DNA of 64,000 nt from a virus (Duplodnaviria > Caudoviricetes): positions 37,819 through 101,818 of IMG/VR virus record IMGVR_UViG_3300043726_000004, one strand, 5' to 3'. The notes below the pieces were generated by a model. It had not been told where the DNA came from. It did not search any database and saw nothing but the letters and a program-made list of their open reading frames with translations. Below are positions 5,622 to 47,189 of this stretch, in pieces. Position numbers and translations under genes: made by a program. Numbering within the stretch: position 1 is the first letter of the stretch; each line of letters opens with the position of its first letter.

Positions 5622-5784
5622 GATCCGAATGAAGGGAACGACGTCATCGTCAAGAACGAGTTGGGACGACGATGCAACCCGCAAGGTCATGGATGTGATG
5701 CATAACACATCAGCATTCCTGGCCCCATTGGGCTGGACGGCGTCTATTGAAAGCGTCGAGGTCCTACAAGACGACAAATCATGA
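5566..5784 (+). CDS. hypothetical protein
   Basis: AGGAGG upstream; ATGA overlap with queD. Confidence 0.6.
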   Translation: MAEQGQEQLATNEKTLLVRIRMKGTTSSSRTSWDDDATRKVMDVMHNTSAFLAPLGWTASIESVEVLQDDKS

Positions 5785-6443
5785 CCGTCATCACGAAAGA
5801 GTTCTGGTTCGAGGCAGCCCATCAGCTGCACTACCATGACGGAAAGTGTGCCCGACTCCACGGGCACTCTTACCGGTGCGAGGTCGACATTGAGGGCGAC
5901 ATAATCCTGCCTGACGCAATTCTCAACATGGCAGGCACGTTGAATGGTAGGAAGCGTAAGGGCACAGCCCATCCTGACCACAACCCGAAGATGGGCTTCG
6001 TCATGGACTTTGGCGATGTGTCGGACTTTCTCAAGCGCATCAATGACCAGTTTCTCGACCACTACTTCCTGAACGAGACCCTTGTTGATTCAGGTTATAT
6101 TCCGCGGTCTACTGCTGAATTCATTGCGGCGTGGATCTTCGGAATGGTGTACAGGCATTTCACTGAGGATGTGACGAGCGTACGCGTGTACGAAACGCGT
6201 ACGTCGTGTGCCGATGTCGACTTGGAGGACTTCAAGGAACTAGAAGAGGGAGGATACGTTATTGTCCGAACAGCCTTCACAGACCGCGACACCGACCCTG
6301 GAAAGCTCAAAGCCGGCGGAAGTGGCACTGGCACCAAGCGACGAACATCAGCAACAGCACCACAGGCCGCCAGGCCGGTCAACGCTACCAATACTGGAGA
6401 TATTCGGCCCGACCATTCAAGGCGAAGGACCAGTCGCGGGTAA
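5781..6443 (+). CDS. queD: 6-carboxytetrahydropterin synthase
   Basis: FEAAH, CARLHGHSY, DFG, LDH, STAE, YET motifs. Confidence 0.93.
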   Translation: MTVITKEFWFEAAHQLHYHDGKCARLHGHSYRCEVDIEGDIILPDAILNMAGTLNGRKRKGTAHPDHNPKMGFVMDFGDVSDFLKRINDQFLDHYFLNETLVDSGYIPRSTAEFIAAWIFGMVYRHFTEDVTSVRVYETRTSCADVDLEDFKELEEGGYVIVRTAFTDRDTDPGKLKAGGSGTGTKRRTSATAPQAARPVNATNTGDIRPDHSRRRTSRG

Positions 6444-7068
6444 GCCCTGTCACTTCATCCGACTCGCCATTTGTGACTTCAGGTGTGAGTGGTGTGACAC
6501 CAAAGAGTCCTGGACAGCAGAACACGCCACGCCCACTACTCATCCGGATATCGCCGCAAAGGTGGCAGCTCTAGGGCCCACACAGCTGATCACCATCACA
6601 GGCGGTAACCCTTGCGTTCATCCCAACGTCGGTGAACTCATGAGGACCATTCGGTATATTATGCCGAACGTCGAGTTCAGCGTTGAGACGCAGGGTTCCG
6701 TCTGGCAAGAGTGGGTCACTCGCCTCCGTTACTGCGTCGTGAGCCCGAAGGGACCGAGCAGCGGGCAAATGCCTAAGCTGAAGATGAACGTCCTCGACAG
6801 GTTCATGTTCGAGACCCGCAACCCGTTCCTCAAGGTTGTGGTTTTCGACGAAGAGGACTACAAGTTTGCCCAGTTTATGCATGCTAGGTACCGTATGGTT
6901 CCGTTCTATGTGTCGTCGGGCACGAACGAGCCTTATACGGGCCTAGTCGACATGAGCGAGCGCTATCGCTGGCTCTGCGAACTTGTTGCGCACGACAAGG
7001 ACATGCAGGACACGACTGTTCTGCCGCAGCTGCACAAACTTGCCTGGGGTAACGAAAAAGGCCGGTGA
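6262..7068 (+). CDS. queE: 7-carboxy-7-deazaguanine synthase (radical SAM)
   Basis: EIFGPTIQGEG, CDFRCEWCDT, TGGNP, ETQG, SPK, PQLH; GGAGG before TTG start. Confidence 0.95.
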   Translation: MSEQPSQTATPTLESSKPAEVALAPSDEHQQQHHRPPGRSTLPILEIFGPTIQGEGPVAGKPCHFIRLAICDFRCEWCDTKESWTAEHATPTTHPDIAAKVAALGPTQLITITGGNPCVHPNVGELMRTIRYIMPNVEFSVETQGSVWQEWVTRLRYCVVSPKGPSSGQMPKLKMNVLDRFMFETRNPFLKVVVFDEEDYKFAQFMHARYRMVPFYVSSGTNEPYTGLVDMSERYRWLCELVAHDKDMQDTTVLPQLHKLAWGNEKGR

Positions 7069-7280
7069 CGGCATCGATGACCAAGTGCGAACTGTGCGGT
7101 ACCGAGATGGACCTGCACAAGACGACGGCCCACGTTGTCAAGTGTAAGACCTGTAACCAGTTCGGCTACATTTGTAGTGCGTGCAAGAGGAAGCATCCGA
7201 AACTGCACAATCATCCGTCACCGCTACGCTTGGTACCGCGCCAGTCCTTATTGGAGTCGGAAGAACACCATGACGCTTGA
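7065..7280 (+). CDS. small Cys-rich zinc-finger protein
   Basis: Three CxxC pairs; GTGA coupling to queE. Confidence 0.6.
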   Translation: MTASMTKCELCGTEMDLHKTTAHVVKCKTCNQFGYICSACKRKHPKLHNHPSPLRLVPRQSLLESEEHHDA

Positions 7281-8364
7281 ACGAATCGGTAGCCACTGGC
7301 TCCATCCGGACCGCATACTCTACAACTGTCCGAGCCTCAGCGTTGAACTGCTGTACGCGAGGGATGCATCACCCGGTTTCGATTGGGATGCCGTACGGTC
7401 CCGCATCCAAATGTGCAACGATCGCGGTGTTCCAGTGGCTCTAAGGGTCGACTGGCGACCTAGAAGAGTCCTTCCCTCCATGTATGACGAGAACGGGGTT
7501 AGTGACTATGTCCAAGCCGTTCAGGAAGCAGTAGCCGATTATCACCCTCGTTGGCTTATCGCAGGGAACGAGACGAACCTTCATTCGGAAACCGACGACG
7601 AGGAAATGCAGGCATGGTGGGTTGCTCGTGTTGTTTTTGGCCATGGTACGGACCCGAACGACACAGGCAACGTCTTTCAGTTTGCACGTACTGCCGATCC
7701 TGACGTAATGGTTCTTGCACCTGCTGTCGGCCCGTATTCGCCTGACACTGCCGGAGACACTAACGGCTGTGAGATTCCTGACGGTCGGGGGATACTAGCA
7801 CCGTGGGAATCTTACATGTACGACCTAGCACGTAGTTCGTACAACAACGAATGGCACGTTCCGGAAATTGGTGACGTCAAGTTCGCCATACACACCTACG
7901 GACGTACGGGCGGGGATGGCAGAGCCAACGGGGGCCCGGAGGAGCCGTGGAACGATGTGCGCGAAGGGACATACGGAGCTCAATTCGGGTCCCGATGGCT
8001 TCAGGATGCACTATTCTATTGCCGTCAAGGTCTGCTCAATTCGGCGTACGGCGTCGATTACTACCCGGGTGGGATCCTCATCTCAGAGGCTAACACGCTC
8101 ACAGACGCTATGCCTTGTGACAGTTACCCGAACGGTTGGTGGCAGAATCTCATTCGGTATGTCAACCAATTCCCAAATGTCATGGGACTCGCAGCCTTCG
8201 TCGATCAAGACCTTGGAGGAATGTGGTCCGACACAGCAATGTCCATCCCAAAGGAACAACTGCGTGTCTGGAATCAAGACCACGACTACGCCCTCCAGCA
8301 GGGATGGCGAATTGGTGAGCACAGACGGAGGGGACGCAACAACACTATCGAGGCAGGTGAATGA
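7270..8364 (+). CDS. glycoside hydrolase-like TIM-barrel protein (clan GH-A-like)
   Basis: WLIAGNETN (acid/base NE), AIHTY, ILISEAN (nucleophile-like); start at MTLERI. Confidence 0.6.
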   Translation: MTLERIGSHWLHPDRILYNCPSLSVELLYARDASPGFDWDAVRSRIQMCNDRGVPVALRVDWRPRRVLPSMYDENGVSDYVQAVQEAVADYHPRWLIAGNETNLHSETDDEEMQAWWVARVVFGHGTDPNDTGNVFQFARTADPDVMVLAPAVGPYSPDTAGDTNGCEIPDGRGILAPWESYMYDLARSSYNNEWHVPEIGDVKFAIHTYGRTGGDGRANGGPEEPWNDVREGTYGAQFGSRWLQDALFYCRQGLLNSAYGVDYYPGGILISEANTLTDAMPCDSYPNGWWQNLIRYVNQFPNVMGLAAFVDQDLGGMWSDTAMSIPKEQLRVWNQDHDYALQQGWRIGEHRRRGRNNTIEAGE

Positions 8365-8367
8365 CCG

Positions 8368-8700
8368 GTGAGCTCTGCCAACATCAACATTTACCAGGGA
8401 GACGACTATGCCGCTATAGTCTCTCTAACCGACAACGACACTGGTGGCCCCGCGGACCTAACAGGTTATACGGCAACTGCTCAGATCCGTGACGACTACG
8501 CGGATAACGCCCAAACGGTCGTTGCGACGTTCGTCATTCAGATTCAGGGTAGCGACGTTTACCTGACGCTCGCTCACGACGTTACTGCCCTCTTGAAGGG
8601 TAATTACCGTTGGGACCTGCAGCTAGTGGACTCTAGCGGGCAGTACACCACTCCCATATACGGCAAAATCTTTGTGCTGCAGGAGGTCACCAGACCGTGA
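8368..8700 (+). CDS. BppU-N-like Ig/adaptor structural protein
   Basis: IYQGDD...DLTGYTATAQIR...YRWDLQL...EVT pattern typical of phage structural adaptors. Confidence 0.7.
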   Translation: MSSANINIYQGDDYAAIVSLTDNDTGGPADLTGYTATAQIRDDYADNAQTVVATFVIQIQGSDVYLTLAHDVTALLKGNYRWDLQLVDSSGQYTTPIYGKIFVLQEVTRP

Positions 8701-9014
8701 TTGCTGGCGTTGATCCACAGATACTAAGGGCCGCACTGACGGTTAGTCCTACGCCTCTACGGGCCAGGCTTCAAACACAACCGCCGCGGTTAGGCCCTGC
8801 GTATATTCGTCAACCCCAAACATTCCGTGCCGGGTTGCAACAGCAGCCGACACCCTTAGCGGCACGCCTACAGAAAACGCCTGACAGGTTCGATGCGGTA
8901 CTGAATCCTACCGGAACGGGCGGTGGGCCAAGTGTCGATGTCGAACTGAGGCGGTACGTGCAGAAGATCATGGCCGTTCTCGATCCGAACGGTCCTCCGT
9001 CGCCGAATCCATGA
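8697..9014 (+). CDS. hypothetical protein with internal repeats
   Basis: Repeated PTPL(R/A)ARLQ units; translationally coupled on both sides. Confidence 0.65.
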   Translation: MIAGVDPQILRAALTVSPTPLRARLQTQPPRLGPAYIRQPQTFRAGLQQQPTPLAARLQKTPDRFDAVLNPTGTGGGPSVDVELRRYVQKIMAVLDPNGPPSPNP

Positions 9015-9226
9015 CCAACGAACCGAACGAACGAGGAAGTGGGTTCCACTCGCAGATCCCAGTCGCAGGCAGCTTGAGTGCCAAGATCATCCGTGCCTGT
9101 CGAGTACATACTGACTGCTCACTTGAATGTCCCGACCGCGTAGTTGAGGACAAAGGCGAAATAGCCAGTTTCGACAACCGCCCGTTGATCGATCGACTCA
9201 AGGAGAAGCTTCCGTGGCATCGCTAG
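9011..9226 (+). CDS. hypothetical protein, possibly the N-terminal part of a split fibre subunit
   Basis: GSLSAKIIRA...VEDKGEI; ATGA coupling. Confidence 0.6.
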   Translation: MTNEPNERGSGFHSQIPVAGSLSAKIIRACRVHTDCSLECPDRVVEDKGEIASFDNRPLIDRLKEKLPWHR

Positions 9227-9609
9227 TTCCGAACGTTGGTAAGGCGATCATCAGTGGTCGCATGATTGGTGCTACTCCGACCCAAGCTGAACCACACTTC
9301 ATCGGTTGGGGAACTGGTGCAGGTGCCGGTGCTGCAACCTCGACCGACTTGAGCACGCCGGCTGCAGAAGCCCGTGCAAACGGTGTGTCGTCCCAGTTTA
9401 CGACTACGGTCACGAACGACACCCACCAAATCGTCGGTACGATCACCGCCACAGGTGCCAAAACCATTACCAACGTCGGCGTGTTCGACGCAGTTGGTTC
9501 AGGCTCGCCCCCGGCTGGTGGCGTCCTGTACGCAATCTTCGACGGTCTGAGCCAGGCTCTCAACTCAGGCGACTCGATCCAGTTTACCGCCAGGGTGCAG
9601 TTCACATAG
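9214..9609 (+). CDS. stand-alone tail-collar-fibre-like (DUF3751-like) beta protein
   Basis: G...IGWGTG...TDL...EAR...ITNVGVFDA...GGVL pattern; AAGGAG RBS. Confidence 0.65.
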   Translation: MASLVPNVGKAIISGRMIGATPTQAEPHFIGWGTGAGAGAATSTDLSTPAAEARANGVSSQFTTTVTNDTHQIVGTITATGAKTITNVGVFDAVGSGSPPAGGVLYAIFDGLSQALNSGDSIQFTARVQFT

Positions 9610-9627
9610 CCCGAGGTCGAACCCTCC

Positions 9628-11703
9628 ATGGTAATGCAGGAGGTACTGCCAGGTAACGGCCTGGTTAGTACACTCAATGGCGCTATAACAGCCGCTGCAA
9701 CCACACTCGCAATCCAGGCGGCGGACGCGGCGAAATGGCCGAGCTCGGGGCTGTACCGTGCTGTCCTGTTTCAGGATGCCACCAATGGGCCGTGGGAGCT
9801 TGTTCGTGTTACTGGCGGTCAAGGTACTGCGACTCTAACGGTCACTCGAGCCGTCGAACCTTACAATGGGGTCCAGACGGCCCTTGCCTGGCCCAGTGGC
9901 ACCAGCATCTCCGCTATCATCACGCACGATGGCCTAGCGCTCGTCGCCGGGCCGCAGGTTGCCATTCTGGTCTATGAGGCCACAGGTGTCACTGGTTCGA
10001 CAGTAACGTTACCTCAAACACCTCTGTCCGGCGGCATATTGACGGTTGCTGTCAACGGTCAAATCCAGCAGACGCCAAGTGACTATACGGTCTCTGGTGC
10101 CACGGTCACGTTCGTGGTTCCTCTCTCCGCGGACAGCATCCACATCGAGTACCAGGTCAGTCCGTACAACCCCAGCGTCGTTGCGTCCCACTACGAAACG
10201 ACCCTCGGTGTAGGCCAGAACACAATCACGTTACCCGTAGCACCGATTGGCTACCCACTGATCACTCGCGATGGTGTTGCTCAGTACCAGTCAGCGGGCC
10301 ACTACTCCTTGTCCGGTGCCGTCATCACATTTGCCGAACCAATAGCCACTGGTGAAGGTGGACGCATTAGCGTCGACTACACTGCAGGTGGCATCGCTGC
10401 ACCGCCTAACGCTTCTACGGTAAACTTCTTCCCTGCTGTTGCTGCCGTCTCTGCGGCACCAAACTCGTTGGTCGCGACTGATGCCAACGGTAAACTGCCT
10501 GCGTCGGTACTCCCAGCGCAGAACACCGTTTACCACGAAGAATTCTTGCCTGCTGCAGGTATCACGACCGTTACGCTAAGTCAGACGCCTGCTGTTGTCC
10601 TGGACGTGTTTCGTGACGGTGTTGCACAGTCCGTTAGCGATGGGCACTATTCCGTCTCGGGTGCTGTAATCACGTTCACTGACGCCTTGGACGGTAGTAG
10701 TCGCGTCCTAGTCACTTATGTCATTGGACTTGCCGTTGGCGCTGCAAGCACTGTCGGTGGCTTTGCCGCCTATGCAGGTTCCTCTGTACCAGTTCCGAAT
10801 GCGCTCGTCGCTACTGGCTCAGACAGCAAGTACAATAACCGCCTAATCGACGCCTATAGGAACCTGCTGACCAACGGTGGGTTCGAGTTATGGCAGCGAG
10901 GTACGGGTCCGTACACGGCCCACCTTGCATACGGACCTGATCGGTGGCGTATCGCACTCACAGGTACGGATACCTTGTCGGTAAGCAGAAGTACCACAGC
11001 AGACACTGTGTTCGGAAGTCAGTATTCGGCAGCTTGCACATTCGTACTGGGCACAGGTGCCGGTAACACGAACCTCCAACAGTACTTCACTACTGTCGAC
11101 AACGCTCAGACGTACAACCGAGCAATGATGTTCTCGGTACGAGTTCAAACGTCTACGCCTAACGCAGTTCGACTAGGTTACTACAACGGCTCGGCATGGG
11201 TGTACGGTACCCAATATCACACCGGTGACGGCACCTGGCAAACGCTGGTTCTGACTATACCGGCACTCGCGATAACCACGCAATACGTCGCAGTCGTGTT
11301 CGCTGCGTCTTGTACGGCATACGTCGACAGCGCCATGCTGATTGTTGGAACCACGTATGCGGACTTCTATCCATGGCCGCCGGCAGTGGACCTTACCATT
11401 TGTCAGCGGTACTACGAAGAGGTAGGTCCTGCAAACAGCGGCACCCTCATATTACGTACCGCGAACCCTACGGCTGCCACATACTATGCAGATACGGTTC
11501 TACGTTGGGCAGTAAGGAAGCCTGCTTCTCCCACGCTCACTAAGAACGGTACTTGGTCCGCTAATAACTGTACACAGCCGTCGACGGCGAATCTAAGCGT
11601 TGATGGCGCTCGCATGGAAGGCTCCACTGGACCAGCTGCTGGAGACTCCTACGTCTACAATGCCGGTACGGGCTGCAACCTCGTCGTGGAGGCTAATCCC
11701 TAG
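9628..11703 (+). CDS. fibre/adhesin protein with Ig-like repeats and a C-terminal CBM-like module
   Basis: Paralogous to the tail fibre at 32044..34860; NLLTNGGFELWQRG...VEANP. Confidence 0.8.
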   Translation: MVMQEVLPGNGLVSTLNGAITAAATTLAIQAADAAKWPSSGLYRAVLFQDATNGPWELVRVTGGQGTATLTVTRAVEPYNGVQTALAWPSGTSISAIITHDGLALVAGPQVAILVYEATGVTGSTVTLPQTPLSGGILTVAVNGQIQQTPSDYTVSGATVTFVVPLSADSIHIEYQVSPYNPSVVASHYETTLGVGQNTITLPVAPIGYPLITRDGVAQYQSAGHYSLSGAVITFAEPIATGEGGRISVDYTAGGIAAPPNASTVNFFPAVAAVSAAPNSLVATDANGKLPASVLPAQNTVYHEEFLPAAGITTVTLSQTPAVVLDVFRDGVAQSVSDGHYSVSGAVITFTDALDGSSRVLVTYVIGLAVGAASTVGGFAAYAGSSVPVPNALVATGSDSKYNNRLIDAYRNLLTNGGFELWQRGTGPYTAHLAYGPDRWRIALTGTDTLSVSRSTTADTVFGSQYSAACTFVLGTGAGNTNLQQYFTTVDNAQTYNRAMMFSVRVQTSTPNAVRLGYYNGSAWVYGTQYHTGDGTWQTLVLTIPALAITTQYVAVVFAASCTAYVDSAMLIVGTTYADFYPWPPAVDLTICQRYYEEVGPANSGTLILRTANPTAATYYADTVLRWAVRKPASPTLTKNGTWSANNCTQPSTANLSVDGARMEGSTGPAAGDSYVYNAGTGCNLVVEANP

Positions 11704-11712
11704 CAGACTGTC

Positions 11713-14700
11713 ATGCCGTTTCCTGGAAGTACAGGCCTACTTGGCACACCATTCAGCCAACCAGGGAGAGTACTCCTTGGTACGCCGTTTGTTCCTGCCA
11801 TTAGGACCTTCCAGCTAACGGTTACCACAAGTACGGTCACCAGTGCAGCAGCCCGTAAACAGGTAAATCTACCCCGTGCCGTCGCTCAGGCTCAGTTCCT
11901 TGTCGGTGTCCGCAGTATAGGTACTCTCCGCTCTGTGTCACAAACGCAGACCCTGATACTGGCCAAACAAGTACGACCCATCAGAACCGTCCCACAGACA
12001 CAAGCTCTGGCACTGCCTAAGGGCGTCAGCCTGGCACGTGCAGTAACTCAAAGTCAGTCTGCCACTGGTTCCCGAGTCGCATCGTTCTTCCGAACGGTTA
12101 CATCAACCCAGTCACAAGCGCTAGCACTCCAACGTGCTGTCAACCTAATCAGGACAATTGCCGAGCCGCAGAGCAATGCCATCCTTCGCACTGCCAGCTT
12201 CCTTCGCACCGTAACAACGACACAGGCTCAGGTAGTAACCAACCCGAAGCAAGTACGACTGACCAGAGTTCTCACCGAAGGTCAATCCCTAGTTGTTATC
12301 CGTGCAACGTCCCTCTTCCGGAGTGTAACGCAGGGCCAAGCAATTTCCGGCAACAAGTCGGCAATCGAGATCCGTGGTGTTACACAAGGCCAAAGCGTCA
12401 GTCTAGGCAAGAAACCATTTCTGGTCGGAGCCGTAACACAAGGACAGACTTTGTCCGTCGGTCTTATCAGGGCGTACTTGCGGACGGTGACAGCCAGCCA
12501 GGGATCTGCAGTTGCCGCCGCGAAGCAGATTTACGCCCTACGACTAGCGGCTCAAACCCAGACGGCAACGTTGTCCCGCGCTGCGACCCTTTTACGTACC
12601 GTAGCAGCCACGCAGGCTCAAACGGCGAGCCTCCGCAAGGTAGTGTCTCTACCTCGTACCATTAGTCAGGCTCAGAGTGCTGTAGTAACCCGACAACTTG
12701 CACTCCTGAGAACGGTCTCGGCTTCAATTACCGAGAACGTGGTCCTGAATCGTGCTGCTACGTTCCCCAAGGTAGGCGTAATCGCCCAAGCATCCACCCT
12801 AACCTTGGTTAGGTCGATATCCCTTTCGCGCTCCCTCAGCGAAGTTACCCAGGCTTCTCTAATTCGAGGGATCAGCCTGACTCGCGGACTTTTACAACCA
12901 CAAAACGCCACGATCGCGGCACCGCGCTCTCTCGTAAGGCTGGTGACAGCCGCGCAGGGGTCCGCCGTAACGGTCGCACTTCGCCAGTCGTTGTTCCGAT
13001 CAGTCATAGCCACTCAAACAATGGCGCTGACTATCGGTCAGAACGTCGCACTCCGAAGGACAGTAACCGAAGCGACTTCAATTGCCTTCGCTGCCGGTCG
13101 TCAGCTATACCGCACCGTCACTCTGACACAGGGTCAAGCAGTCGCCATGACGCGTATGGCGGCTCAGTCGATCATCCTGTCGACGACTCAGACCCAGACA
13201 GTAGTCCTACGGAAGGCTATCTCGGTTGCTAGGACGGTTCCCGAGACTCTCGCCGCCGGTGGAACGATTCAGGCGCGGCTCGCGAGAAGCATTACACAAG
13301 GCCAGAGTGCGGCATTCTCGTTCACTCGAGTCTTCGCACGTGCAGTAACAGTCGTTCAAGGACAGGGGGTAGCGCTAAACCGTGCAGCATCACTAACTCG
13401 GACGGTTACCCAGTCTCTGTCCCTGACACGAACTCTGGCAGTTTCAGTCACCAGAACGGTTGCACAGGCACAAACGTTCAGTGGGGCAGCCTCACGTGTC
13501 CTCATTCGGATTGTCACGGCAACACAGCCGCAATCCACCACGATCCGCCAGGCAACAACACTCACCCGCAACCTGTTCCAACCTCAGTCCGTTACGAGTC
13601 AACAACAAGTCCGGCTCACGCGTGTAATCGCACAGGCTCAACTTGCTGCCGGAATTGCACAGCGTGCGTACCTCAGAGTCCTGACGACCATAGGTCAAGG
13701 ACAAGCGGCCGCTCTCCAGAAGGGTATTACACTCAGCCGGTCCGTAACACAATCTCAATCTGCTACCGTACGACAACCGTTCCGTGCACTTAGCGGCACT
13801 GCGACCGTAGTAACGCAAGCAACGGTTCTCGCACCGAGAACAATGTCCCGTATAGTCACGACGTCTACGGCGACCGTAGCGACGTTAGGGACCAGACTAG
13901 GACTGCTACGCACTCTTGTTGCGACACAGACCCAGAATGTTGTAGTCGGCCAAGCAGCGAGACTAACGCGCGCAACCACCGAAGTCACTAAGGGCACACT
14001 CGGTGTAGGTCGCGTACTCTTCCGCATAGTAACTGCTACGCAGGGCCAGAGTCTCACGTTGACCTTCACGCGCTCGCTCTTGCGTACGGTTACCACGAAT
14101 CAGAACCAACTGCTCCGTCTGTCCAAGGCCATCAGCGTCAACGTCAGCACTACGGAGCAGATGTACCTGTTCATTCAGCGAACGACGCAGCTCCGACGTT
14201 CCGTAATTCAACCGTACAGTATCAGTCTCAACGTTGCTCGTACAGTACGTGTTTCGGCAACTGCGACAGTGTCCCAGGTCGCTTCACTGACGCTGCCGCT
14301 TCGCAGTATCAGTGTCAGAGCCACTCAGGCAACATCGGCGACCGGTGCGGCCGCCCGAAGGACACTGCGGACCGTTACGACGACTCAAAGTCAAGCGGTC
14401 TCATACGTAACGCACAGGATCGTTCCCGTCTACGGCAGAGCCACGATCGCGGTCAGCATAACACTAGGGCGTCAGATCACACTAACACGCGCCATCGTTC
14501 AGCTGCTCCAAGCACGCCTCAACCGTGCATCAACGATGCTCCTGACGCTGCAGGTTCCACCGCAGATCCTTCATATCGGTCGACGCACTACGGTAACGGT
14601 TTCTGCAATCCAACCTACTCTACTAGGACTTCTGAGAGGGCTTCGCCTCAGGCTGGCAGTCACACAGCCCGTCAAGGCGACGGTGGACGCGGAACGGATT

Positions 14701-14967
14701 TACAGGAACTTCTACATCACGGTCGGCGTCCAACAACGGACTTATGCCAGCGTCGAAACGTACATTCCCACTACGATCACGGTTGTATGGGACTCAAACC
14801 TTGGCACGTTCCGCTCGGTCGGTCCTTATACCCCGGTATTCTGGGCAAATGGCCAGTTCACAGACGACATGATCGCAGTCGACACACCATCGGTCGAGTG
14901 GGATACACAGCGGGAACAGTTTCAACCCATCGTCAATGCACAAACGACGTCGCAGGACCAAAACTAA
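11713..14967 (+). CDS. 1084-aa basic R/T/Q/V/S-rich tandem-repeat protein
   Basis: Long open frame of about 45-50 repeats of 18/20 aa, R-T-V-T-(xx)-Q-x-Q. Confidence 0.85.
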   Translation: MPFPGSTGLLGTPFSQPGRVLLGTPFVPAIRTFQLTVTTSTVTSAAARKQVNLPRAVAQAQFLVGVRSIGTLRSVSQTQTLILAKQVRPIRTVPQTQALALPKGVSLARAVTQSQSATGSRVASFFRTVTSTQSQALALQRAVNLIRTIAEPQSNAILRTASFLRTVTTTQAQVVTNPKQVRLTRVLTEGQSLVVIRATSLFRSVTQGQAISGNKSAIEIRGVTQGQSVSLGKKPFLVGAVTQGQTLSVGLIRAYLRTVTASQGSAVAAAKQIYALRLAAQTQTATLSRAATLLRTVAATQAQTASLRKVVSLPRTISQAQSAVVTRQLALLRTVSASITENVVLNRAATFPKVGVIAQASTLTLVRSISLSRSLSEVTQASLIRGISLTRGLLQPQNATIAAPRSLVRLVTAAQGSAVTVALRQSLFRSVIATQTMALTIGQNVALRRTVTEATSIAFAAGRQLYRTVTLTQGQAVAMTRMAAQSIILSTTQTQTVVLRKAISVARTVPETLAAGGTIQARLARSITQGQSAAFSFTRVFARAVTVVQGQGVALNRAASLTRTVTQSLSLTRTLAVSVTRTVAQAQTFSGAASRVLIRIVTATQPQSTTIRQATTLTRNLFQPQSVTSQQQVRLTRVIAQAQLAAGIAQRAYLRVLTTIGQGQAAALQKGITLSRSVTQSQSATVRQPFRALSGTATVVTQATVLAPRTMSRIVTTSTATVATLGTRLGLLRTLVATQTQNVVVGQAARLTRATTEVTKGTLGVGRVLFRIVTATQGQSLTLTFTRSLLRTVTTNQNQLLRLSKAISVNVSTTEQMYLFIQRTTQLRRSVIQPYSISLNVARTVRVSATATVSQVASLTLPLRSISVRATQATSATGAAARRTLRTVTTTQSQAVSYVTHRIVPVYGRATIAVSITLGRQITLTRAIVQLLQARLNRASTMLLTLQVPPQILHIGRRTTVTVSAIQPTLLGLLRGLRLRLAVTQPVKATVDAERIYRNFYITVGVQQRTYASVETYIPTTITVVWDSNLGTFRSVGPYTPVFWANGQFTDDMIAVDTPSVEWDTQREQFQPIVNAQTTSQDQN

Positions 14968-15037: not shown

Positions 15038-15691
15038 ATGACTAATTCCTTTTCGAACCCAAGTCCTCAACAACTGGCGATGAGCGATACGACGGTAGTC
15101 AACGTAACAATCAAGACCCAGCGGGACGCAGTGTATCAGGCAGTGCAGGCCCTACTCAAGGCACTGCCTATCAACATGTCGGCAGAATCACAACGGGAGA
15201 CCCCTAGGCGGTTTACCGACTACCTGTTGGAATTCTGCAACCCTACGGACCCCATGGCGATCTTGAAGGAAGGGTTTGAGACGGGTGGTGGTGAAGGAGG
15301 AATGGTCATCCAGCAGAACATACCGCTTAGGGGGCTGTGTGAACATCACCTGGCACCCTTCTTCGGATATGCGCACATTGCTTACTTGCCTCGTGCGCGA
15401 CAGGTCGGTCTCAGTAAGATGGCTAGGTTGGTTGACGCTATCGGTACTTGTGCGCCATCGATGCAAGAGCACATGTCCGATCACATCGCCGACATCCTCA
15501 ATCGTGGTCTTGAACCTAACGGTGTTATGGTAGTTACTGAGGCGATTCACACATGTATGTCAGTCCGTGGAGTTCACGCGCCAGGTGTGATTACGACCGC
15601 TAGCGCGTTGCGTGGCATCTTTCTCACGAACCCGGCTGCTAAGTCAGAAGCGCTGGCGCTCATGTCGTCTCGACGGATACCGACCATCTAA
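15038..15691 (+). CDS. folE: GTP cyclohydrolase I
   Basis: ETPRR, CEHHLAPFFG, GLSKMAR, QE, HTCMSVRG. Confidence 0.95.
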   Translation: MTNSFSNPSPQQLAMSDTTVVNVTIKTQRDAVYQAVQALLKALPINMSAESQRETPRRFTDYLLEFCNPTDPMAILKEGFETGGGEGGMVIQQNIPLRGLCEHHLAPFFGYAHIAYLPRARQVGLSKMARLVDAIGTCAPSMQEHMSDHIADILNRGLEPNGVMVVTEAIHTCMSVRGVHAPGVITTASALRGIFLTNPAAKSEALALMSSRRIPTI

Positions 15692-17431: not shown

Positions 17432-19966
17432 ATGACTCAAACAGCCCTGGCCCAGGCTGCAGCCAAGGAGTATGGCGTCGTACATCCTCCCGTTCGATGC
17501 CCTACATGCCCATACGGTGGTGCGAGAGTTGGTGCCGTTGGCCCCAAAGACGCGGACCTGTGCATCGTCGGTGAAGCCCCAGGTGCGCAGGAGTTAGCTA
17601 ATGGCGTTCCTTTCATTGGACCCAGTGGTCGACTACTCAAAACTTGCCTCCGTCGAGCCGGACTTGAAGCTGATTATCCGGTTTTCATCACCAACAGTCT
17701 TTCATGTAGACCTACTGCTAAGCCTACCGAGCGCGGCTTCAAAACTGCGCTCGGTTGTTGCCGTAGTAGAGTACTGGATGAGGTTTTCGGAATTCGACGC
17801 AAGGTGGTACTGGCTACAGGAGCCAGTGCTCTCAAAACACTCACTGGTGATCTCAACGCGACCATTACCAGTGCCCGCGGTAGGGCTATTGTTCGTGATG
17901 ACGGTACGATCGTCGTCCCTACTCTCCACACTGCTGCTATTCTGCGCAAGCCTCAAGAGTTCCGAAAGCTCACTGCGGACTTCGGATACGCTGTCCACCT
18001 CCTACGTGGAGGAAGCCTCAAGTCAGCTGGAGAAACTGTCCACAGCGTCCTTCTGTCCGAAGACCAGGTTCGACGATTCGCCCAACTTGTTCACTCTCTC
18101 CCACCACACCCCTACACAGGACGGATCACCTTAGTCGCTGACATTGAGACGAGCGGCTACTCCCCTCGGTATGACGACATCCTGTGTATCGGAATAGGAT
18201 GGAAGAAGAACCGCATTATGGTAGTACCAGGCACGTTGTGGGCGTGTCTGAAGGAAGCCCTAGAGGACCTAGACATCTGTTGGGTGTGGCAGAACGGCAA
18301 GTTTGACTCGTCGTTCTTTCAGGAACGTGGTGTGTACTCCCGAGTAGACGAAGACACCATGCTCATGCACTACGCACTGGACGAGACGCGTGGTACTCAC
18401 GACCTGGAACAGCTAGCGTCCGACAACTTGGGTATGCCGAACTACAAACTGGAAATGCGGCATAGGTACCTGAAGAAGAAGTCCGACTCGTTTGCATTAG
18501 TTCCCGCCAACGCACTGTACCGCTACAATGCCGTTGACGTCGATGCGACGTTGCAGGTCTTCGACATTCTGGCCGCTCGACTGCAGAAGGACCCCACCCT
18601 CGAACGTCTGTACCGCCAAACACTGCTACCGGCGAGCGCCTTTCTCCAGAGAGTCGAAAGACGAGGCTTCTACGTCGACCAAACGACTCTGAACCGACTG
18701 GACGAAGAGCTAGGCAGTCAGCTAGGTACTGCCAGAAGCGGACTCCAGAAGTTCGTGGGCGACACAGGCATTTGGGATCCTGCTGCATATGTACGTTCCA
18801 CAGGCCACAAAAAGGAACCGACCTTCTTCAATCCAGGCAGTCCCGAACAAGTAACCTGGATTCTGTACAACCGTCTTCGACTGAAGTCAGCCAAGAACCT
18901 CCCTCAGGACAGCCGTGCAGAAACTCTCAAGAGCCTACCGCAGGTTCCGTTTGTTACGGAACTGCTCAAGTTCCGTGGCGTCGAGAAGCAGTACGACACC
19001 TACATCAAGGGTACCCGACGAGCTATACAGCCCGACGGCCGTGTACATTCCACTTACCTTATCCACGGGACAGTCACAGGACGTCTTTCTTCTCGCAACC
19101 CAAACATGCAGAACATCCCGCGGGAAGGAAGCATCAAGCTGGTATTTGCAGCACCTCCTGTCGGAAGTGATGGTCGTCCGAGAATCCTTATCGAGGTCGA
19201 CTACAATCAGGCTGAATTGCGGGTGCTTGCTGCATTTAGTCGAGATCCCTTCCTCGTTCAGTGTTACGTAGAAGGCCGGAAACTCCACGACGAAATGGCG
19301 CGGTACCTATACGGATACCCGTACACGAAGTTCCAGTATATCCGCACTAAGGCTGTGAACTTCGGCATTCCGTATGGACGTACAGCACCAAGCATCGCAC
19401 TGGAGCACAATATCCCGATACCAGAAGCCCAGCGCATGATTGATGACTGGTTCAAACGTGCTCCAGGTGCCTACAAGTACATCATGTCTTGTAGGCAAGC
19501 ACCAGTGCAAGGGAAAGCCCTTGTAACGCCTTTCGGTAGAAAACGTCGCTTCGGCCTCGTGACTCCCGAAACACTCCACGATCTGCAGAACGAAGCATCC
19601 AACTTCCCGATCAGTTCGACGGCGTCAGACTGCACGCTGCACTCGGGGATGAGAACTGACCGCAAGCTGGAAGCAATGGATTGCAAGGTCGTAAACCTCG
19701 TCCACGACTCGATCATCATTGAGGCACCGTACGATCGGTCGGTAGTCGAGGACGCAATCGGTTACATGTCCGAGACGATGACCCAGGTCCCCAGGGAGTT
19801 CATCGGCGGACTCGTACCGTTTGCAGCTGACGCCAAGGTCGGCTTCGCATGGGGCGCGATGCATCCTTGGGACGATCCTAGCGACGAGGACAACTTGAAC
19901 CACGAACTCCCACCACTCGAGCTATACCATGTCCCGCAGGAGAAGGAATTAGCCTGGGTGGCGTAG
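17432..19966 (+). CDS. family A DNA polymerase with N-terminal family-4 UDG and 3'-5' exonuclease domains
   Basis: GEAPG..E...PFIGPSG; DIET, KFD, YNAVD; TGRLSS, DYNQAELR, KAVNFGIPYG, VHDS. Confidence 0.95.
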   Translation: MTQTALAQAAAKEYGVVHPPVRCPTCPYGGARVGAVGPKDADLCIVGEAPGAQELANGVPFIGPSGRLLKTCLRRAGLEADYPVFITNSLSCRPTAKPTERGFKTALGCCRSRVLDEVFGIRRKVVLATGASALKTLTGDLNATITSARGRAIVRDDGTIVVPTLHTAAILRKPQEFRKLTADFGYAVHLLRGGSLKSAGETVHSVLLSEDQVRRFAQLVHSLPPHPYTGRITLVADIETSGYSPRYDDILCIGIGWKKNRIMVVPGTLWACLKEALEDLDICWVWQNGKFDSSFFQERGVYSRVDEDTMLMHYALDETRGTHDLEQLASDNLGMPNYKLEMRHRYLKKKSDSFALVPANALYRYNAVDVDATLQVFDILAARLQKDPTLERLYRQTLLPASAFLQRVERRGFYVDQTTLNRLDEELGSQLGTARSGLQKFVGDTGIWDPAAYVRSTGHKKEPTFFNPGSPEQVTWILYNRLRLKSAKNLPQDSRAETLKSLPQVPFVTELLKFRGVEKQYDTYIKGTRRAIQPDGRVHSTYLIHGTVTGRLSSRNPNMQNIPREGSIKLVFAAPPVGSDGRPRILIEVDYNQAELRVLAAFSRDPFLVQCYVEGRKLHDEMARYLYGYPYTKFQYIRTKAVNFGIPYGRTAPSIALEHNIPIPEAQRMIDDWFKRAPGAYKYIMSCRQAPVQGKALVTPFGRKRRFGLVTPETLHDLQNEASNFPISSTASDCTLHSGMRTDRKLEAMDCKVVNLVHDSIIIEAPYDRSVVEDAIGYMSETMTQVPREFIGGLVPFAADAKVGFAWGAMHPWDDPSDEDNLNHELPPLELYHVPQEKELAWVA

Positions 19967-40416: not shown

Positions 40417-43400
40417 CTAAGGCCGCCTCACCGGTGTGTTTCCGTGTGCATCGAGCCAGAGTTCACCGATTCGTCCCATCAGGCGGTCGGCCAACCCATT
40501 GACAACATCTCCCGCAACGTCCACTCCGCCGCCTTGGACCACAACCGCTCCAGCAGAGATGGCCCCTGCGTCCAAGTGAAGATGGACACCGCCATCGCCG
40601 CCGCCACCCATACGTGAACGGTACGCTTCGATGTCACCGCCTTCACCAAAGAGGTACGGGAGTCCCGAATGCGACCCCACCCCGAATACGGACTCGAGAA
40701 TCGGACCACCATATTGATACCCCTGATACGGACCACGATTGGCCCACTCAATCAACGAACCGATACCACCGTACCGCTTGTTGATGTAGTTGATGGTCGA
40801 CAAGGCCTGATCGAGTGGGTTAGTGGGGTCTCCATGTCCAGGATCGGCGTAGGCTCTGAACGTGTCGGGCATCTCCTGACCGATACCGAACGCTTTGCCT
40901 GACTGAGCTGCTGCCGCAATGTCCACGTTACCGCCGGCACCGTAGTACGCAGCAGGATTCAACGACGCGTTCTCGTGCTGACGCAGGAAGGACATGATTC
41001 TCGTCAAGTCTTCCATGCTGATGCCCTTCATCTGGGCTGCTAGTCGCAGTGCTTGCTCGCCTGACAGGCTCTTGGTGTCTGCTCCACCGAGCGGTGCGCC
41101 TCCGGGCCCCTGATTCAGGAGGTTCATCGCCGCACCACCTTTAGTGGCTTCGATGAACGTCCTAACTCCGCCACCTGTGATCGGTAACGCCGCCATCTGC
41201 GCCAACGTCATGTCAGCAGCGCCACCTCGCAGTGCGGTGCCTGTAGTTCCTACGTGGTAGGCACCCGTTTCGGGGTTGTATCCAGTTGCCAAGAAGTAAT
41301 GGCCTGGTGTGTCGAGCGTGATTGCTTCACCACGCTGCAACGCCGCCTGTGCCTGCTCCTGAGTGACTTCCTTCGCTGCATAACCCATACCACGCAGGAG
41401 GTCTTCGTAGCCACCAGGACCTGACATGCCACGACCTGCAGCCCAGTCACCGCGGGAGACCGCCATTGTCTGGACGTCAGCAAGTTTGGCCGCATCGCCG
41501 AAGCCGCGAGCTACACCTTGGGCAGCGATGAGCCCGCAAGCATCGGCGACACGGTCCGCTGACAGCCCTGCAGCAGTCAGGGCTTCTACTGTTTGGGGGG
41601 TAGTAAGTTCAGTACCTGCACCGACACCAACTCCACCTCCGCCACCCGTTTTCCAGGCGGCAAGGATGTTACTGGGATCAAGGATATCCTGCATTTCTGT
41701 AACCAGACGATGCAAGTCTTCCATGAGGTCCAGCTTGTTGTCGTCAATACCCTTGATTAGGCCTTGGATGATATCTTGGCCCTGATCGATGAAGTACGGC
41801 GCGGGAGACTGTCCCCAGGTCAATTGATCCTGAATAACGTCATGCGTATCCTGCAGAGACTGCTGTTGTTCCTTCGTTTCACTGGCAGCACCTTCGGCAA
41901 TACCCTGGATAATCGCCTGACCCTGTGTGATACCGTGCCTCTTCTGAATCTCGGCCGCGAAGGCAGGGTCTTCCTGCATCTTCATGGCCAAGTCCTTTTC
42001 CAGCTTGAGGTAGCTGTCACTGATGTAGGACAGCGGAATCTCACCCACGGCGAAGGCCTCTACAATAGCCCTTTGTCTTCCGATAACGCCTCCGCCAAGT
42101 TCTGGAGCATACTTCTCCGCAGCAGCCTGTTGCGCTGCCTGCGCCTCGTTGGAGTACTGCAGCGAGCCAATAGGCGCAGCGTAGGGACTTGCTTCCCAGC
42201 CTGCTACCTGCTGCTTATACGCCTCTCCCGACTTCTGTAGCCAGCCAAGAATGCCACCCTCTTCCTTCAGCCACGGACCAAGTCCTGGGATATCCGTGGC
42301 GGAAGGTACTTTGATGGTGTGCTCGTTTTGCCACTGGATGAACTTGTCCAGCTCTTGGAGTACATCCCTGATGGCGTCGGCGATCGCCTTGAATGCTTCG
42401 GCGACAGTCTTGAGACCCTCAACGAAGTCCTTAGCGTTCTGCTGTACCTGCTCTTGATGAGCACGTTGTTGTTCAGCTTCTTTCGCCCAGCCACCGGTCT
42501 TAGCCAACTCGGCCTCGATCGCTGCCTGCTCCTCAGGTGTTCGACCAGGCGCAACCGGCGCAGGTTGTTGAACTGCATGGCCAAAAATGGAAGCGATCGC
42601 ACCAGCACCTTCAACGATGGACTTAAGGCCTTCGCCAAAGGTCGCGAACACTCCTTGCTTCTCCATCTCACTGTAGACGGTTGTGAGCCAAGTCCAAACG
42701 TCTTGGAGCGTCTTGGAGACTTTGTCCCACCCACCTTGCAGGTCTGGAAGACCCTCATGAGTCAACCAGTCAATTGCCTTCGGGATATTGGTGGCTAGGA
42801 AGTCCCAAAGATCCTGGAATGCACGTCTACCGTCTCTCTCCCACCACTGACCGAACTCGTCCAGTTTCTGGAGGAACGTGGGCCAACCGACAGTACGGAT
42901 CCACTCGATCGCGTCCCGAAGTCTAGGACCGAGCCACTCTGCGAACTGCTGGAGTGCAGGGATACCAGTCATGGCAAGCCAGTCCATAAGTTCGCGAAGG
43001 ACTTCCAGGAATCCGCCTGTAAGTGCATCCACAATCTGTCGGATGACACGACCGAAAGAGCCCATATGGTCAGTCAAGTCGTCGAAGACCTGCCGACCTA
43101 CCATACCCAGCATGTCCAGAAATGAGGTCGACTCTCGGAACTCGCGGGACTTGAAGACGGTATCGAGTGAATGACCAAGAGCACTGACAGCACCTACGAC
43201 GGTTGTGCCAATCGTGTTACCGAACAGTTCCAAGGCATGTGACAATGCTTCGGTAGAAGCACTACCCTGATTGAACCAACTGATCAAGGCCTCCATACCC
43301 TGTTCGAGAGGCTTGGCAATACCTTGACCGAAGCGGACCAGAATGTCGTTGTTGATGATGTCCTCGATGGTTGACCAAAGACCTTCGAGCGTATGCTCTT

Positions 43401-44223
43401 GTTTCTCCATCAAACCACCGAAGCGGGACTCCATACCTTCGGCTAACAGCCGCAACGAACGGTTAGCAGGGAGCACACCGTTCTGCATCCAGTTCTGGAT
43501 CTGCTTCGTCGTAGTACCGTACCCTTCAGCAAGGATCTGAAGGGCAGGAACGCCGACTCGTTGGAGTTCCATCACATCTCTGGCCGTAACCCTACCTTGG
43601 GCAGCGATGCGCTGGAAGTCCAATGAGATGGCCTGAATGCCTGCACGACCTCGACCCAGGCCTGATGCGGCGTCCCCGATAGCGGTCATAAACGGAATGA
43701 TGCGTTCTGCGTTGATGCCTACCGCTAACAGGTTCTCCGCCGCTTCACGTAGTTCGGGGAACGTGAACGGTGTGTAGTTAGCGAAGTCCCTCAACTTGGT
43801 CAGCATTTCATTACCACGCTCTGCCGAACCGAGGAACTGGGTGAAGGCGATCTGGGCCTCTTCAAGGTCGGAGGCAAGCTTCAACGGCCAAGCCATGGCA
43901 CCAACGGCCGCTGCCGCGATAACGCCAGTCCGGTAGTTGATGAACGTTCTCAGAAGGCTGTTGATCGCACCGATGGGCGCGGTCACAGCAGACGTAATGA
44001 AGGAGAACATTCCACCGATCGCGTCGGAGATGCCTTTGATGGCACCACCAAGCACCGGAATCGGCTGCAGGATGCTCGAGACAAACCCACCCCATGCACC
44101 CGTCGCACCATTCACCGCGTTCTGGAAGGAACTGATTTGGTTCAGTGCCTGACCAAACGCCTGTGGCGCCATGTTAGTGGCGTTGATGTTGACGTTGATG
44201 CGATAGGTCGCGCCAGCAGCCAT
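40417..44223 (-). CDS. tape measure protein with C-terminal peptidase-like and lytic transglycosylase-like domains
   Basis: FANYTPF tape domain; Trp-periodic helices; HE...NP, GIGQ, YINKRYG. Confidence 0.92.
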   Translation of the reverse strand: MAAGATYRINVNINATNMAPQAFGQALNQISSFQNAVNGATGAWGGFVSSILQPIPVLGGAIKGISDAIGGMFSFITSAVTAPIGAINSLLRTFINYRTGVIAAAAVGAMAWPLKLASDLEEAQIAFTQFLGSAERGNEMLTKLRDFANYTPFTFPELREAAENLLAVGINAERIIPFMTAIGDAASGLGRGRAGIQAISLDFQRIAAQGRVTARDVMELQRVGVPALQILAEGYGTTTKQIQNWMQNGVLPANRSLRLLAEGMESRFGGLMEKQEHTLEGLWSTIEDIINNDILVRFGQGIAKPLEQGMEALISWFNQGSASTEALSHALELFGNTIGTTVVGAVSALGHSLDTVFKSREFRESTSFLDMLGMVGRQVFDDLTDHMGSFGRVIRQIVDALTGGFLEVLRELMDWLAMTGIPALQQFAEWLGPRLRDAIEWIRTVGWPTFLQKLDEFGQWWERDGRRAFQDLWDFLATNIPKAIDWLTHEGLPDLQGGWDKVSKTLQDVWTWLTTVYSEMEKQGVFATFGEGLKSIVEGAGAIASIFGHAVQQPAPVAPGRTPEEQAAIEAELAKTGGWAKEAEQQRAHQEQVQQNAKDFVEGLKTVAEAFKAIADAIRDVLQELDKFIQWQNEHTIKVPSATDIPGLGPWLKEEGGILGWLQKSGEAYKQQVAGWEASPYAAPIGSLQYSNEAQAAQQAAAEKYAPELGGGVIGRQRAIVEAFAVGEIPLSYISDSYLKLEKDLAMKMQEDPAFAAEIQKRHGITQGQAIIQGIAEGAASETKEQQQSLQDTHDVIQDQLTWGQSPAPYFIDQGQDIIQGLIKGIDDNKLDLMEDLHRLVTEMQDILDPSNILAAWKTGGGGGVGVGAGTELTTPQTVEALTAAGLSADRVADACGLIAAQGVARGFGDAAKLADVQTMAVSRGDWAAGRGMSGPGGYEDLLRGMGYAAKEVTQEQAQAALQRGEAITLDTPGHYFLATGYNPETGAYHVGTTGTALRGGAADMTLAQMAALPITGGGVRTFIEATKGGAAMNLLNQGPGGAPLGGADTKSLSGEQALRLAAQMKGISMEDLTRIMSFLRQHENASLNPAAYYGAGGNVDIAAAAQSGKAFGIGQEMPDTFRAYADPGHGDPTNPLDQALSTINYINKRYGGIGSLIEWANRGPYQGYQYGGPILESVFGVGSHSGLPYLFGEGGDIEAYRSRMGGGGDGGVHLHLDAGAISAGAVVVQGGGVDVAGDVVNGLADRLMGRIGELWLDAHGNTPVRRP

Positions 44224-45746: not shown

Positions 45747-47189
45747 TCAGGCCGTTGCTTGCCAGCGGAACTGGAGCTTGGCCAACAGGTGCTCGATCAC
45801 GTCGTTGTCGTCGACGCGGATGATGACCTGGAAGGTGTCAGGGGCTGGCTGGACTGGATCTGCCGTTACAGTACCACCAGGGGCAATCAGACCTCGAACG
45901 ATGAAGTCGTTCACGACGCCTTGCGCAGTTCCAAGGACCATTCCTTGCCCTGCGATGTCGTTCAGGATCTTACCGACGAGCTGCAACCACAAACTCTGGA
46001 TCTGGCGGATCATGGCGAAGCGGATCCGTGTGCGGTGGAGCTTCTTCCAGCCTGCGTCCAGTTGCATTGTTGGTGCATTGAACGTAGTCAGGCCTTGCTC
46101 GACGACCATCTGACCCAGGAAGTTCTTGGTCAGTGGGATTGCACCGCTGTTGAGGGCGTTGACGACGTCGGCGTTGACAAGGTTGCCATAGATGCCAACA
46201 GCGTTCTGGATGACCGAGTACGTGAGGGCCTCTTCGAGGTTCTGACTCGCCATCATGCCGCACAGCCGAGCTGCGGCCTTCATGCCTTCTCGGACGGCGC
46301 CGTCGGAACCTGTGAAACCATTGATCACCAGCGCCACGGCCTTGTCGTTCATCGCCTTGGCATTTTGGAGCCGCGTGGCAAATGGGATTGCAGTCGGCTG
46401 ACCCATGATGGAGATGATCCACGAGCCTTCGCTGTTGAGCCGATCGACCCAGGACTGAACTGTGCCCTGCATGACCGAGTCCTCAACGTCGACAGCGACA
46501 ACTTCCCACTCGTGGTCGAGTTCCAGCACACCCAAGGCGGTGGAGTACATCAACGCCGTGATGCTTGCAGGGTCAGTACCGCCCGTCATCGCTGTATTAG
46601 TGACAGGGGCAAACTTGCCAGAACCCTTGACAACGTACTGGTAAGTGACCCACGGACTACCGATCTGCGCCATCGCAGTGACCAAGTTCTGGCCTTCGTC
46701 GTCGGTCGTGGTCACGTACTTCGTGAACGGGATAGTCTGTACCAGTTGGTTCTGGTAGTAGATCACCAACTCTCGCAGTGTGGTGTTGCTCAGGTTGTCA
46801 CGGATGGTGTACGTTATGGAGTTACCATCGGTACCTGGCTGTGCAGCGAACAGGTTACCGATGGTGACCCCCGGCGACGTTGAGTCGTCCTTGACGGCCG
46901 CTGTCGCTTGCGCGCTCACGTCGCCTACCCGGACGGTCTTGACGAGGTTGATCCCGCCTCGAAACATCTCTCGCACGACATCCGTCGTACCGCTGGAGCC
47001 GAAGTAGGCCGTCAGCTGGTCCATCGACTCGAGCTCAACGATCTGGTTCAATGGACCACGAGTGCCACGAATGATCGCAGCACCTGTGCCTTGTGCGTCG
47101 GGGAGCTTCGGTGGCTCCCCGATGTTCATGAAGGCGAATGCTGGACCCGGTCGAACGGGTACAGTGCCGATCGCGTACGTACCAGGCAT
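45747..47189 (-). CDS. contractile tail sheath protein
   Basis: VRPG, GPLNQ, GGTD, VEQGLTT, WKKL..R. Confidence 0.92.
   Translation of the reverse strand: MPGTYAIGTVPVRPGPAFAFMNIGEPPKLPDAQGTGAAIIRGTRGPLNQIVELESMDQLTAYFGSSGTTDVVREMFRGGINLVKTVRVGDVSAQATAAVKDDSTSPGVTIGNLFAAQPGTDGNSITYTIRDNLSNTTLRELVIYYQNQLVQTIPFTKYVTTTDDEGQNLVTAMAQIGSPWVTYQYVVKGSGKFAPVTNTAMTGGTDPASITALMYSTALGVLELDHEWEVVAVDVEDSVMQGTVQSWVDRLNSEGSWIISIMGQPTAIPFATRLQNAKAMNDKAVALVINGFTGSDGAVREGMKAAARLCGMMASQNLEEALTYSVIQNAVGIYGNLVNADVVNALNSGAIPLTKNFLGQMVVEQGLTTFNAPTMQLDAGWKKLHRTRIRFAMIRQIQSLWLQLVGKILNDIAGQGMVLGTAQGVVNDFIVRGLIAPGGTVTADPVQPAPDTFQVIIRVDDNDVIEHLLAKLQFRWQATA

Follow-up and report, generated by a model that had tools for sequence, protein, structure and literature searches.

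What use has a phage for a protein of 1084 residues that is nearly devoid of acidic side chains and is built for most of its length from short, degenerate repeats? The question is raised by P0001, encoded on the plus strand of a 64-kb stretch (the window; positions 37,819 to 101,818) of the IMG/VR virus record IMGVR_UViG_3300043726_000004, which runs to 101,818 bases and is estimated to be 88% complete. Its source is an uncultured phage of the Caudoviricetes whose gene content indicates a contractile tail. A first-pass annotation, made from the letters of the DNA, had proposed that each repeat donates a β-strand to a small subunit encoded at 9214-9609, and that the protein is a tape measure for the resulting filament. 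Our analysis leads us to conclude that P0001 is very probably the rope of a chain-like, beads-on-a-rope virion fibre, in which the 9214-9609 product is the bead. The architecture is already known; P0001 is unusually long for it, its sites outnumbering those of the longest solved example three- to fourfold. The parts of the two proteins are as follows.

11713..14967, plus strand: rope protein P0001, 1084 residues, an open reading frame (ORF); predicted extended scaffold of a beaded fibre.
11713..11874, plus strand: N-terminal 54 residues of P0001, without repeats; duplicated LLGTPF motif, no family match.
11875..13722, plus strand: residues 55-670, where the repeats are well kept; about 32-34 units, each 18 or 20 residues long.
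13723..14652, plus strand: residues 671-980, where the repeats are degenerate; about 10-15 weaker units, low-scoring or skipped by the unit hidden Markov model (HMM).
14653..14964, plus strand: C-terminal non-repeat tail, residues 981-1084; all seven Asp, W/F-D motifs.
9214..9609, plus strand: bead protein, 131 residues, of the Gp80/Fiber-I/whisker type by Pfam, structure, homologues and co-folding.

The composition of P0001 is as acid-poor as the first-pass annotation had stated: there is no Cys, the first of only seven Asp stands at residue 992, and nine of the 13 Glu lie before residue 990. With 101 Arg and 15 Lys the protein has a net charge of +96, and it is made up of 15% Thr, 12% Ala, 11% Val, 10% Leu and 10% Gln. 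Autocorrelation of residues 51-905 under a BLOSUM matrix, scored against 300 shuffles, gives z = 12.8 at a lag of 18 residues, 8.1 at 20, 12.2 at 38 and 10.3 at 56. Peaks at 38, 56 and 76 residues, seen both here and in a shorter rope on another contig (L009, 10427-11542), indicate a higher-order alternation of 18- and 20-residue units. An HMM of the unit marks 42 copies, with a start-to-start step of 18 residues in 22 cases and of 20 residues in ten, and the larger steps (37-60) imply about seven missed degenerate units, for a total of 42-49. A stricter window estimator counts about 34 well-kept units between residues 19 and 665; the repeats decay past about residue 670, and the window statistic for residues 671-980 falls under threshold. 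The unit lengths first read from the sequence were thus correct, while the original count of 45-50 agrees with the upper end of the HMM range and exceeds the number that the stricter estimator regards as well kept. Within the well-kept zone the unit has the form R-[TSA]-[VIL]-[TS]-x-x-Q-x-Q ... [RK] .... Tandem Repeats Finder detects no DNA tandem repeat in the gene, so the DNA copies have diverged, also as proposed. None of the other ORFs of at least 120 residues in the window reaches the periodicity threshold, which was set above all 957 null windows taken from them.

The small protein encoded at 9214-9609 is a weak but consistent relative of Gp80, the Fiber I protein of Ralstonia phage GP4, with moderate support. 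Its match to the Pfam family PF23140 (Gp80, GP4 Fiber I protein) is sub-threshold, with E = 0.003, and 28 of the 29 members of its own family match PF23140 at E ≤ 0.01, the best at 1.6e-5. The bead was modelled with AlphaFold 2 (AF2) at a predicted local distance difference test (pLDDT) score of 68. Foldseek alone returned no match to this model at E ≤ 0.001, and searches of PDB by sequence, with the single sequence or a profile, found none; the kinship appears on realignment of the model and through Pfam. On realignment the phi812/A511 arm proteins scored best (Z 7.8), followed by the whiskers of Sf14 and Bas63 (Z 7.6 and 7.5, 97 positions aligned) and by GP4 Fiber I (Z 6.8, 109 aligned at 20% identity), against at most 5.4 for unrelated folds. 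Databases hold 655 homologues of the bead, and 232 IMG/VR stretches carry a bead gene; the 101.8-kb record itself has one only.

In GP4, Bas63/Sf14 and A1002, dimers of a gp80-like bead (about 140 residues) are threaded on a single extended rope by β-sheet augmentation (PMC12609058, PMC13730344). The rope of the podophage GP4 has a gene of its own; it holds five gp80 dimers, and the resulting Fiber I docks on the gp77 fibre-tail adaptor (PDB 8JOU; Zheng et al., J Mol Biol 2023, as cited in PMC12609058, PMC13730344). Collar/whisker complexes are represented by the Escherichia myophage Bas63 and by Sf14 (PDB 9MT4, 9C39): in Bas63 two whisker dimers wrap, 'like beads on a string', the rope domain that the Ig-like collar carries, the rope running through the grooves of the whisker monomers and completing their incomplete sandwiches (PMC12609058). 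The nozzle-rope gp39 of the Pseudomonas podophage A1002 bears 11 dimers of gp40/gp41, forming an augmented β-sheet in which about 226-268 rope residues span about 300 Å (PMC13730344). A candidate for the GP4 rope can be named from its sequence: gp79 (numbered by gene count; MH638294.1, our L016, 12948-13925, minus strand, 325 residues) lies directly downstream of gp80 and has a periodicity of 20 residues (z 6.6) and of 10 residues (z 5.2). No PDB chain carries the gp79 sequence.

Does the same pairing of genes hold for P0001 and its relatives? P0001 itself belongs to no Pfam or PHROG family, has no match among 50,697 phage records (tblastn, megablast) and no close relative in IMG/VR, and a word-indexed search with it yielded two relatives only. 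An exhaustive profile-free search, on the other hand, found 49 proteins, nearly all with an R-x-V-T-x-x-Q-x-Q unit at 18/20-residue spacing. Many of these have an N-terminal domain of about 250 residues, Laminin_G_3 in four and the GP4 Gp77 fibre-tail adaptor in one, and the longer relatives of P0001 include P0002 (1725 residues) and P0006 (3271 residues). All loci reached through rope relatives (L004, L005/L006, L007) have a bead gene (hmmsearch E from 1e-25 to 7e-72), all loci reached through bead relatives (L009, L011, L013, L014, L015) carry a rope, and in every one of them the rope-like protein with the 18/20 TQxQ unit is encoded directly after the bead gene or no more than a few kb from it. 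The rope of L009 has 371 residues and about 11 units, that of L011 818 residues and about 20-22 units. Among relatives the bead keeps 76-92% identity, whereas the rope has changed until it is hardly recognisable. In MW202796.1 (L002) the bead, 50% identical and annotated 'tail collar fiber protein', is followed at once by an 18-residue-repeat protein (9372-10661). The repeat of this AT-rich relative is built of Lys, Ser and Thr instead of Arg, Thr and Gln, so that the period is kept and the sequence is not.

The unit HMM trained on P0001 proved too specific, missing several true relatives, and a composition-free periodicity test was therefore used, at the threshold given above, to survey 80 of the 232 IMG/VR bead loci. 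A periodic ORF (18-22 residues) lies downstream on the same strand in 43 of the 58 loci that have at least 4 kb of downstream sequence; the bead gene is thus common, and usually followed by a periodic rope gene of varying unit number. The count of units ranges from about 6 to about 40, with a median of about 12 and a maximum of 39 among the 80 loci, which puts P0001, at 34 units by the same estimator, at the long end. Beads 84-92% identical to this one occur on contigs of about 32-40 kb that look like small temperate phages (L009, L014 and L015); Resolvase-family recombinase genes are present in L009 and L015, and L009 and L014 encode Phage_capsid_4 capsids. Beads this similar, in the present phage and on such contigs, suggest that the bead-rope cassette moves between very different types of phage.

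To model the interaction, four beads were co-folded with rope residues 73-146 (four repeats) in three runs. The interaction prediction score from aligned errors (ipSAE) was 0.69 (runs 0.68-0.74), compared with 0.42 for the best control, and passes a mark attained by 58 of 80 solved complexes and by 2 of 110 mismatched pairs; at least 44% of contacts recur between runs, with a partner pLDDT of at least 55. All four beads are placed on residues 73-109, which are exactly two units, implying one dimer per repeat. Contact is made through the C-terminal strand of the bead (residues 119-131), one copy pairing parallel to the rope and the next antiparallel, an alternation that a two-fold dimer on a directional rope requires. 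Contacts of Arg with Asp or Glu are also predicted. The model thus predicts that bead dimers bind the rope by β-sheet augmentation, and that the well-kept units are docking sites for one dimer each. One dimer per unit agrees with the ratio in A1002, the longest solved rope, where about 20-24 rope residues serve each dimer, and with the 20- and 10-residue periods of GP4 gp79. The original suggestion that the repeats donate strands to the 9214-9609 product is accordingly upheld at the level of prediction, by bead family, gene pairing and a co-fold that passes its controls.

Folded alone by AF2, P0001 reaches a mean pLDDT of 32.6, with no solenoid and no stacked strands. This agrees with the expectation of the first-pass annotation that it would be unlikely to fold by itself, and the confident solenoid which that annotation had named as a refutation does not appear, although a single-sequence prediction is a weak guide here. 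The result also bears on a first alternative, namely that P0001 needs no small protein at all and is a self-sufficient β-solenoid or trimeric β-helical fibre shaft, its units stacking as coils in the manner of left-handed β-helices, curli or triple β-spirals. Units of 18-20 residues have a typical coil length, and a composition rich in Thr, Val and Gln, within a fibre-like gene cluster, would suit such a shaft. However, in addition to the AF2 result, P0001 matches no Pfam solenoid repeat family and lacks a regular Gly/Pro turn motif, the stacking of about 100 uncompensated Arg would be unfavourable, and the conserved pairing with a Gp80-type bead would be left unexplained, as would the co-fold. 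We consider a solenoid improbable.

The unusual charge of P0001 invites a second alternative, in which charge-spaced repeats bind a polyanion (DNA, teichoic acid or lipopolysaccharide), the protein being either packaged inside the head or displayed as a surface adhesin. A net charge of +96 and the lack of any Asp before residue 992 are in its favour. Yet every 19 residues of the rope have a charge of +1.99 and every bead monomer one of -2, so that at the predicted stoichiometry the acidic bead matches the charge of the rope and explains an acid-free, Arg-rich composition without recourse to a polyanionic ligand. The neighbours of the gene, too, are genes for fibres and collar and not for the head; in relatives the repeats are joined with lectin-like domains or with the Gp77 fibre-tail adaptor domain; and the AT-rich relative, with its Lys, Ser and Thr, keeps the 18-residue period beside a bead. 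Polyanion binding as the function of P0001 therefore seems to us very unlikely. We give as little credence to an assembly chaperone or transient template, which would organise bead polymerisation and then be removed, so as to be missing from the mature fibre like a true tape measure: this was the framing of the first-pass annotation, and the presence of the rope in virions is itself a prediction, but in all solved cases the rope stays as the core of the fibre, and the beads are described as dimers end to end around it.

The original idea stands in substance, but the predicted rope would be a permanent scaffold instead of a transient tape measure. Tail tape measure proteins are α-helical, occupy the interior of the tail tube and leave it at infection. 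P0001 resembles them in that one long chain would determine how long a polymer of other subunits becomes, but this phage has a conventional tape measure at 40417-44223 (minus strand, 1268 residues, 19 PHROG tape-measure matches), adjoining the baseplate genes and downstream of the sheath gene, and P0001 falls in no tape-measure family. Given that gene, and the lack of a Pfam or PHROG match for P0001, we reject P0001 as the tail tape measure.

As the rope of a beaded fibre, P0001 could work as follows. The chain would stay extended without folding on its own, each unit of 18 or 20 residues offering two short strand segments that each start with Arg or Lys and together contribute a charge of about +2. 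These segments would slot into the open β-sandwich grooves of the two subunits of one bead dimer, one subunit pairing parallel and the other antiparallel. If the rope is lined by one dimer after another, end to end, bead number and fibre length would both follow from how many units are usable: some 34-49 units would hold about 70-100 bead subunits and, at the A1002 spacing of about 27 Å per dimer, give a fibre of about 90-130 nm. The bead gene has a strong AAGGAG Shine-Dalgarno sequence 6 nt upstream of its start and the rope gene has none at canonical spacing, which fits a need for far more bead than rope (about 70-100 per rope). Because solved ropes are anchored at their C-terminal side, the acidic tail at residues 981-1084 is by analogy with A1002 and Bas63 a candidate anchor end, which probably fixes the rope to the virion, perhaps through a 110-residue LtfC-like protein encoded nearby. 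The tail has no Pfam match and no useful Atlas lead, and its only close relatives are in P0004 and P0005. The N-terminal 54 residues are possibly the distal end or a docking peptide, and a fibre-like protein of 691 residues may make up the distal end or decorate it. The repeat, the pairing of the genes, the family of the bead and the predicted interface are results of the analysis. The stoichiometry, length and anchoring of the fibre are thus extrapolated from the model and from solved relatives, as is its function, which is probably reversible binding to the host surface.

That repeat number sets fibre length is what we infer from this scheme. A broader version, which we put forward tentatively and would not yet back over its negation, is that the 18/20-residue repeat protein is an evolvable molecular ruler, in which gain or loss of units would directly set the length of a two-component heteropolymeric fibre (about 0.1 micrometre and 70-100 subunits in this phage), and that the cassette is a widespread mobile module by which podo-, sipho- and myophages tune their reach to the host surface.

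Several observations weigh against the rope-and-bead reading or limit it. The binding of bead to rope, and the assembly of the two, are predictions of structural modelling; an unrelated control protein of 65 residues reached 0.42, so the groove of the bead may accept many extended peptides, and similar complexes have been solved, so that the co-fold may have passed by likeness to these and not by binding of this particular copy. The failure of single-sequence AF2 is a weak sign of disorder and leaves room for a solenoid fold. The kinship of the bead is distant, its PF23140 match scoring 18.2 bits against a curated cut-off of 27 and every structural Z score lying below 8. PDB sequence searches with P0001, with its family profile and with GP4 gp79 gave no match, to a solved rope or otherwise. 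At the locus itself, the gene for the 691-residue protein lies between bead and rope, and a search of the 101.8-kb record (88% complete) yields no Gp77-type collar (PF23148). Finally, gp79 has more 20-residue periods than GP4 has dimers (five), so occupancy need not equal repeat number, and the degeneracy of the P0001 units past about residue 670 makes the number of occupied sites uncertain.

Set beside the known systems, the locus shares with GP4 a separately encoded rope, a Gp80-type bead and adjacent genes for bead and candidate rope. It differs in size (34-49 predicted dimers as opposed to five), in the type of phage (contractile-tailed, of at least 100 kb, as opposed to a podophage) and in having no Gp77 match, an LtfC-like protein taking its place; sequence searches show no relation between the ropes. 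Bas63 and Sf14 are myophages too, their whisker is among the best structural matches of the bead, and the completion of its sandwich resembles our co-fold, but in Bas63 the Ig-like collar protein supplies the rope, as a short extension at its N-terminus that holds two dimers, where P0001 is a free-standing chain of 1084 residues. A1002 likewise binds its beads by β-augmentation; its rope, however, is a domain of the nozzle protein with two bead species and 11 sites, compared with one bead gene and about 34-49 sites here. The Anabaena myophage A-1(L) bears a bead-chain neck fibre of gp82-gp81-gp80, about 100 nm long (PMC10966104). Like the fibre proposed here it is a beaded appendage that a myophage carries as an accessory and encodes outside its main structural operon, but its beads are trimers joined head to tail, a different principle of construction; a chain of this type was set aside as a model for P0001 because it has no rope protein. 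Beyond the papers named here, our literature search found no description of long ropes or of this family of 18/20-residue repeats.

Beads-on-a-rope fibres have been described only since 2023, by cryo-electron microscopy of a few phages with short ropes (2 to 11 beads). At this locus the two-gene principle probably scales to about 40 docking sites, and if the ruler proposal is true, the solved examples of 2-11 beads are the short end of a family whose ropes reach 40 to more than 100 sites. An 18/20-residue period beside a Gp80-like gene offers a signature for annotating giant 'hypothetical' repeat proteins of phages, and the pair is a simple system in which to probe whether a single chain programmes the length of a protein polymer.

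The bead and rope genes form a separate plus-strand block, apart from the structural genes on the minus strand, which encode terminase, portal, sheath (45747-47189), tape measure, baseplate wedge and several fibre proteins. The block contains three further features.

9628..11703, plus strand: 691-residue tail-fibre-like protein, between the bead and rope genes; matches phrog_8469 and phrog_28838.
8368..8700, plus strand: 110-residue LtfC-like β-sandwich protein; PF23926 (LtfC) at 27.1 bits (cut-off 27).
8697..9226, plus strand: two small ORFs (105 and 71 residues) inside the module; no family match.

The 691-residue protein may be a tip or partner of the beaded fibre, or an independent fibre; in relatives, lectin-like proteins are found at the position of its gene or fused to the N-terminus of the rope. 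The match to phrog_28838 lies in a C-terminal region common to four fibre-like proteins of the phage (27420-34860, minus strand, and 9628-11703), and judged from this region the phage carries several paralogous, putative receptor-binding tips. The LtfC-like protein also matches phrog_1084 (E = 7e-22) and, weakly, BppU_N, with marginal matches alone in PDB (E 0.13-0.36); the Ig-like collars of GP4 and Bas63 make it, by analogy, a plausible candidate for a collar or adaptor joining fibre and virion. A pair of ORFs similar in size and position to those at 8697-9226 is also present in L009. A further ORF at 7267-8364 (365 residues, counted from an internal Met) contains the motifs NETN and SEAN, which recall a TIM-barrel glycoside hydrolase. 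Pfam gives it no significant match; a depolymerase or lysin of the fibre module is one possibility for its product.

The rope and bead block is flanked by genes for QueD and QueE (5781-7068) and for FolE (15038-15691), and lies upstream of a fusion of PolA and uracil-DNA glycosylase. The presence of QueD-like, QueE-like and GTP cyclohydrolase I (FolE) genes around the fibre module suggests 7-deazaguanine modification of the DNA, and the fibre cassette appears to be inserted within this gene set. The polymerase fusion (17432-19966, 844 residues) combines a domain of the uracil-DNA-glycosylase superfamily with a 3'-5' exonuclease and a family A DNA polymerase. Beyond it, the 297-residue product of 20183-21076 matches Pfam Tad3, a type I Thoeris inhibitor, at E = 1.9e-22, and is a candidate anti-defence gene.

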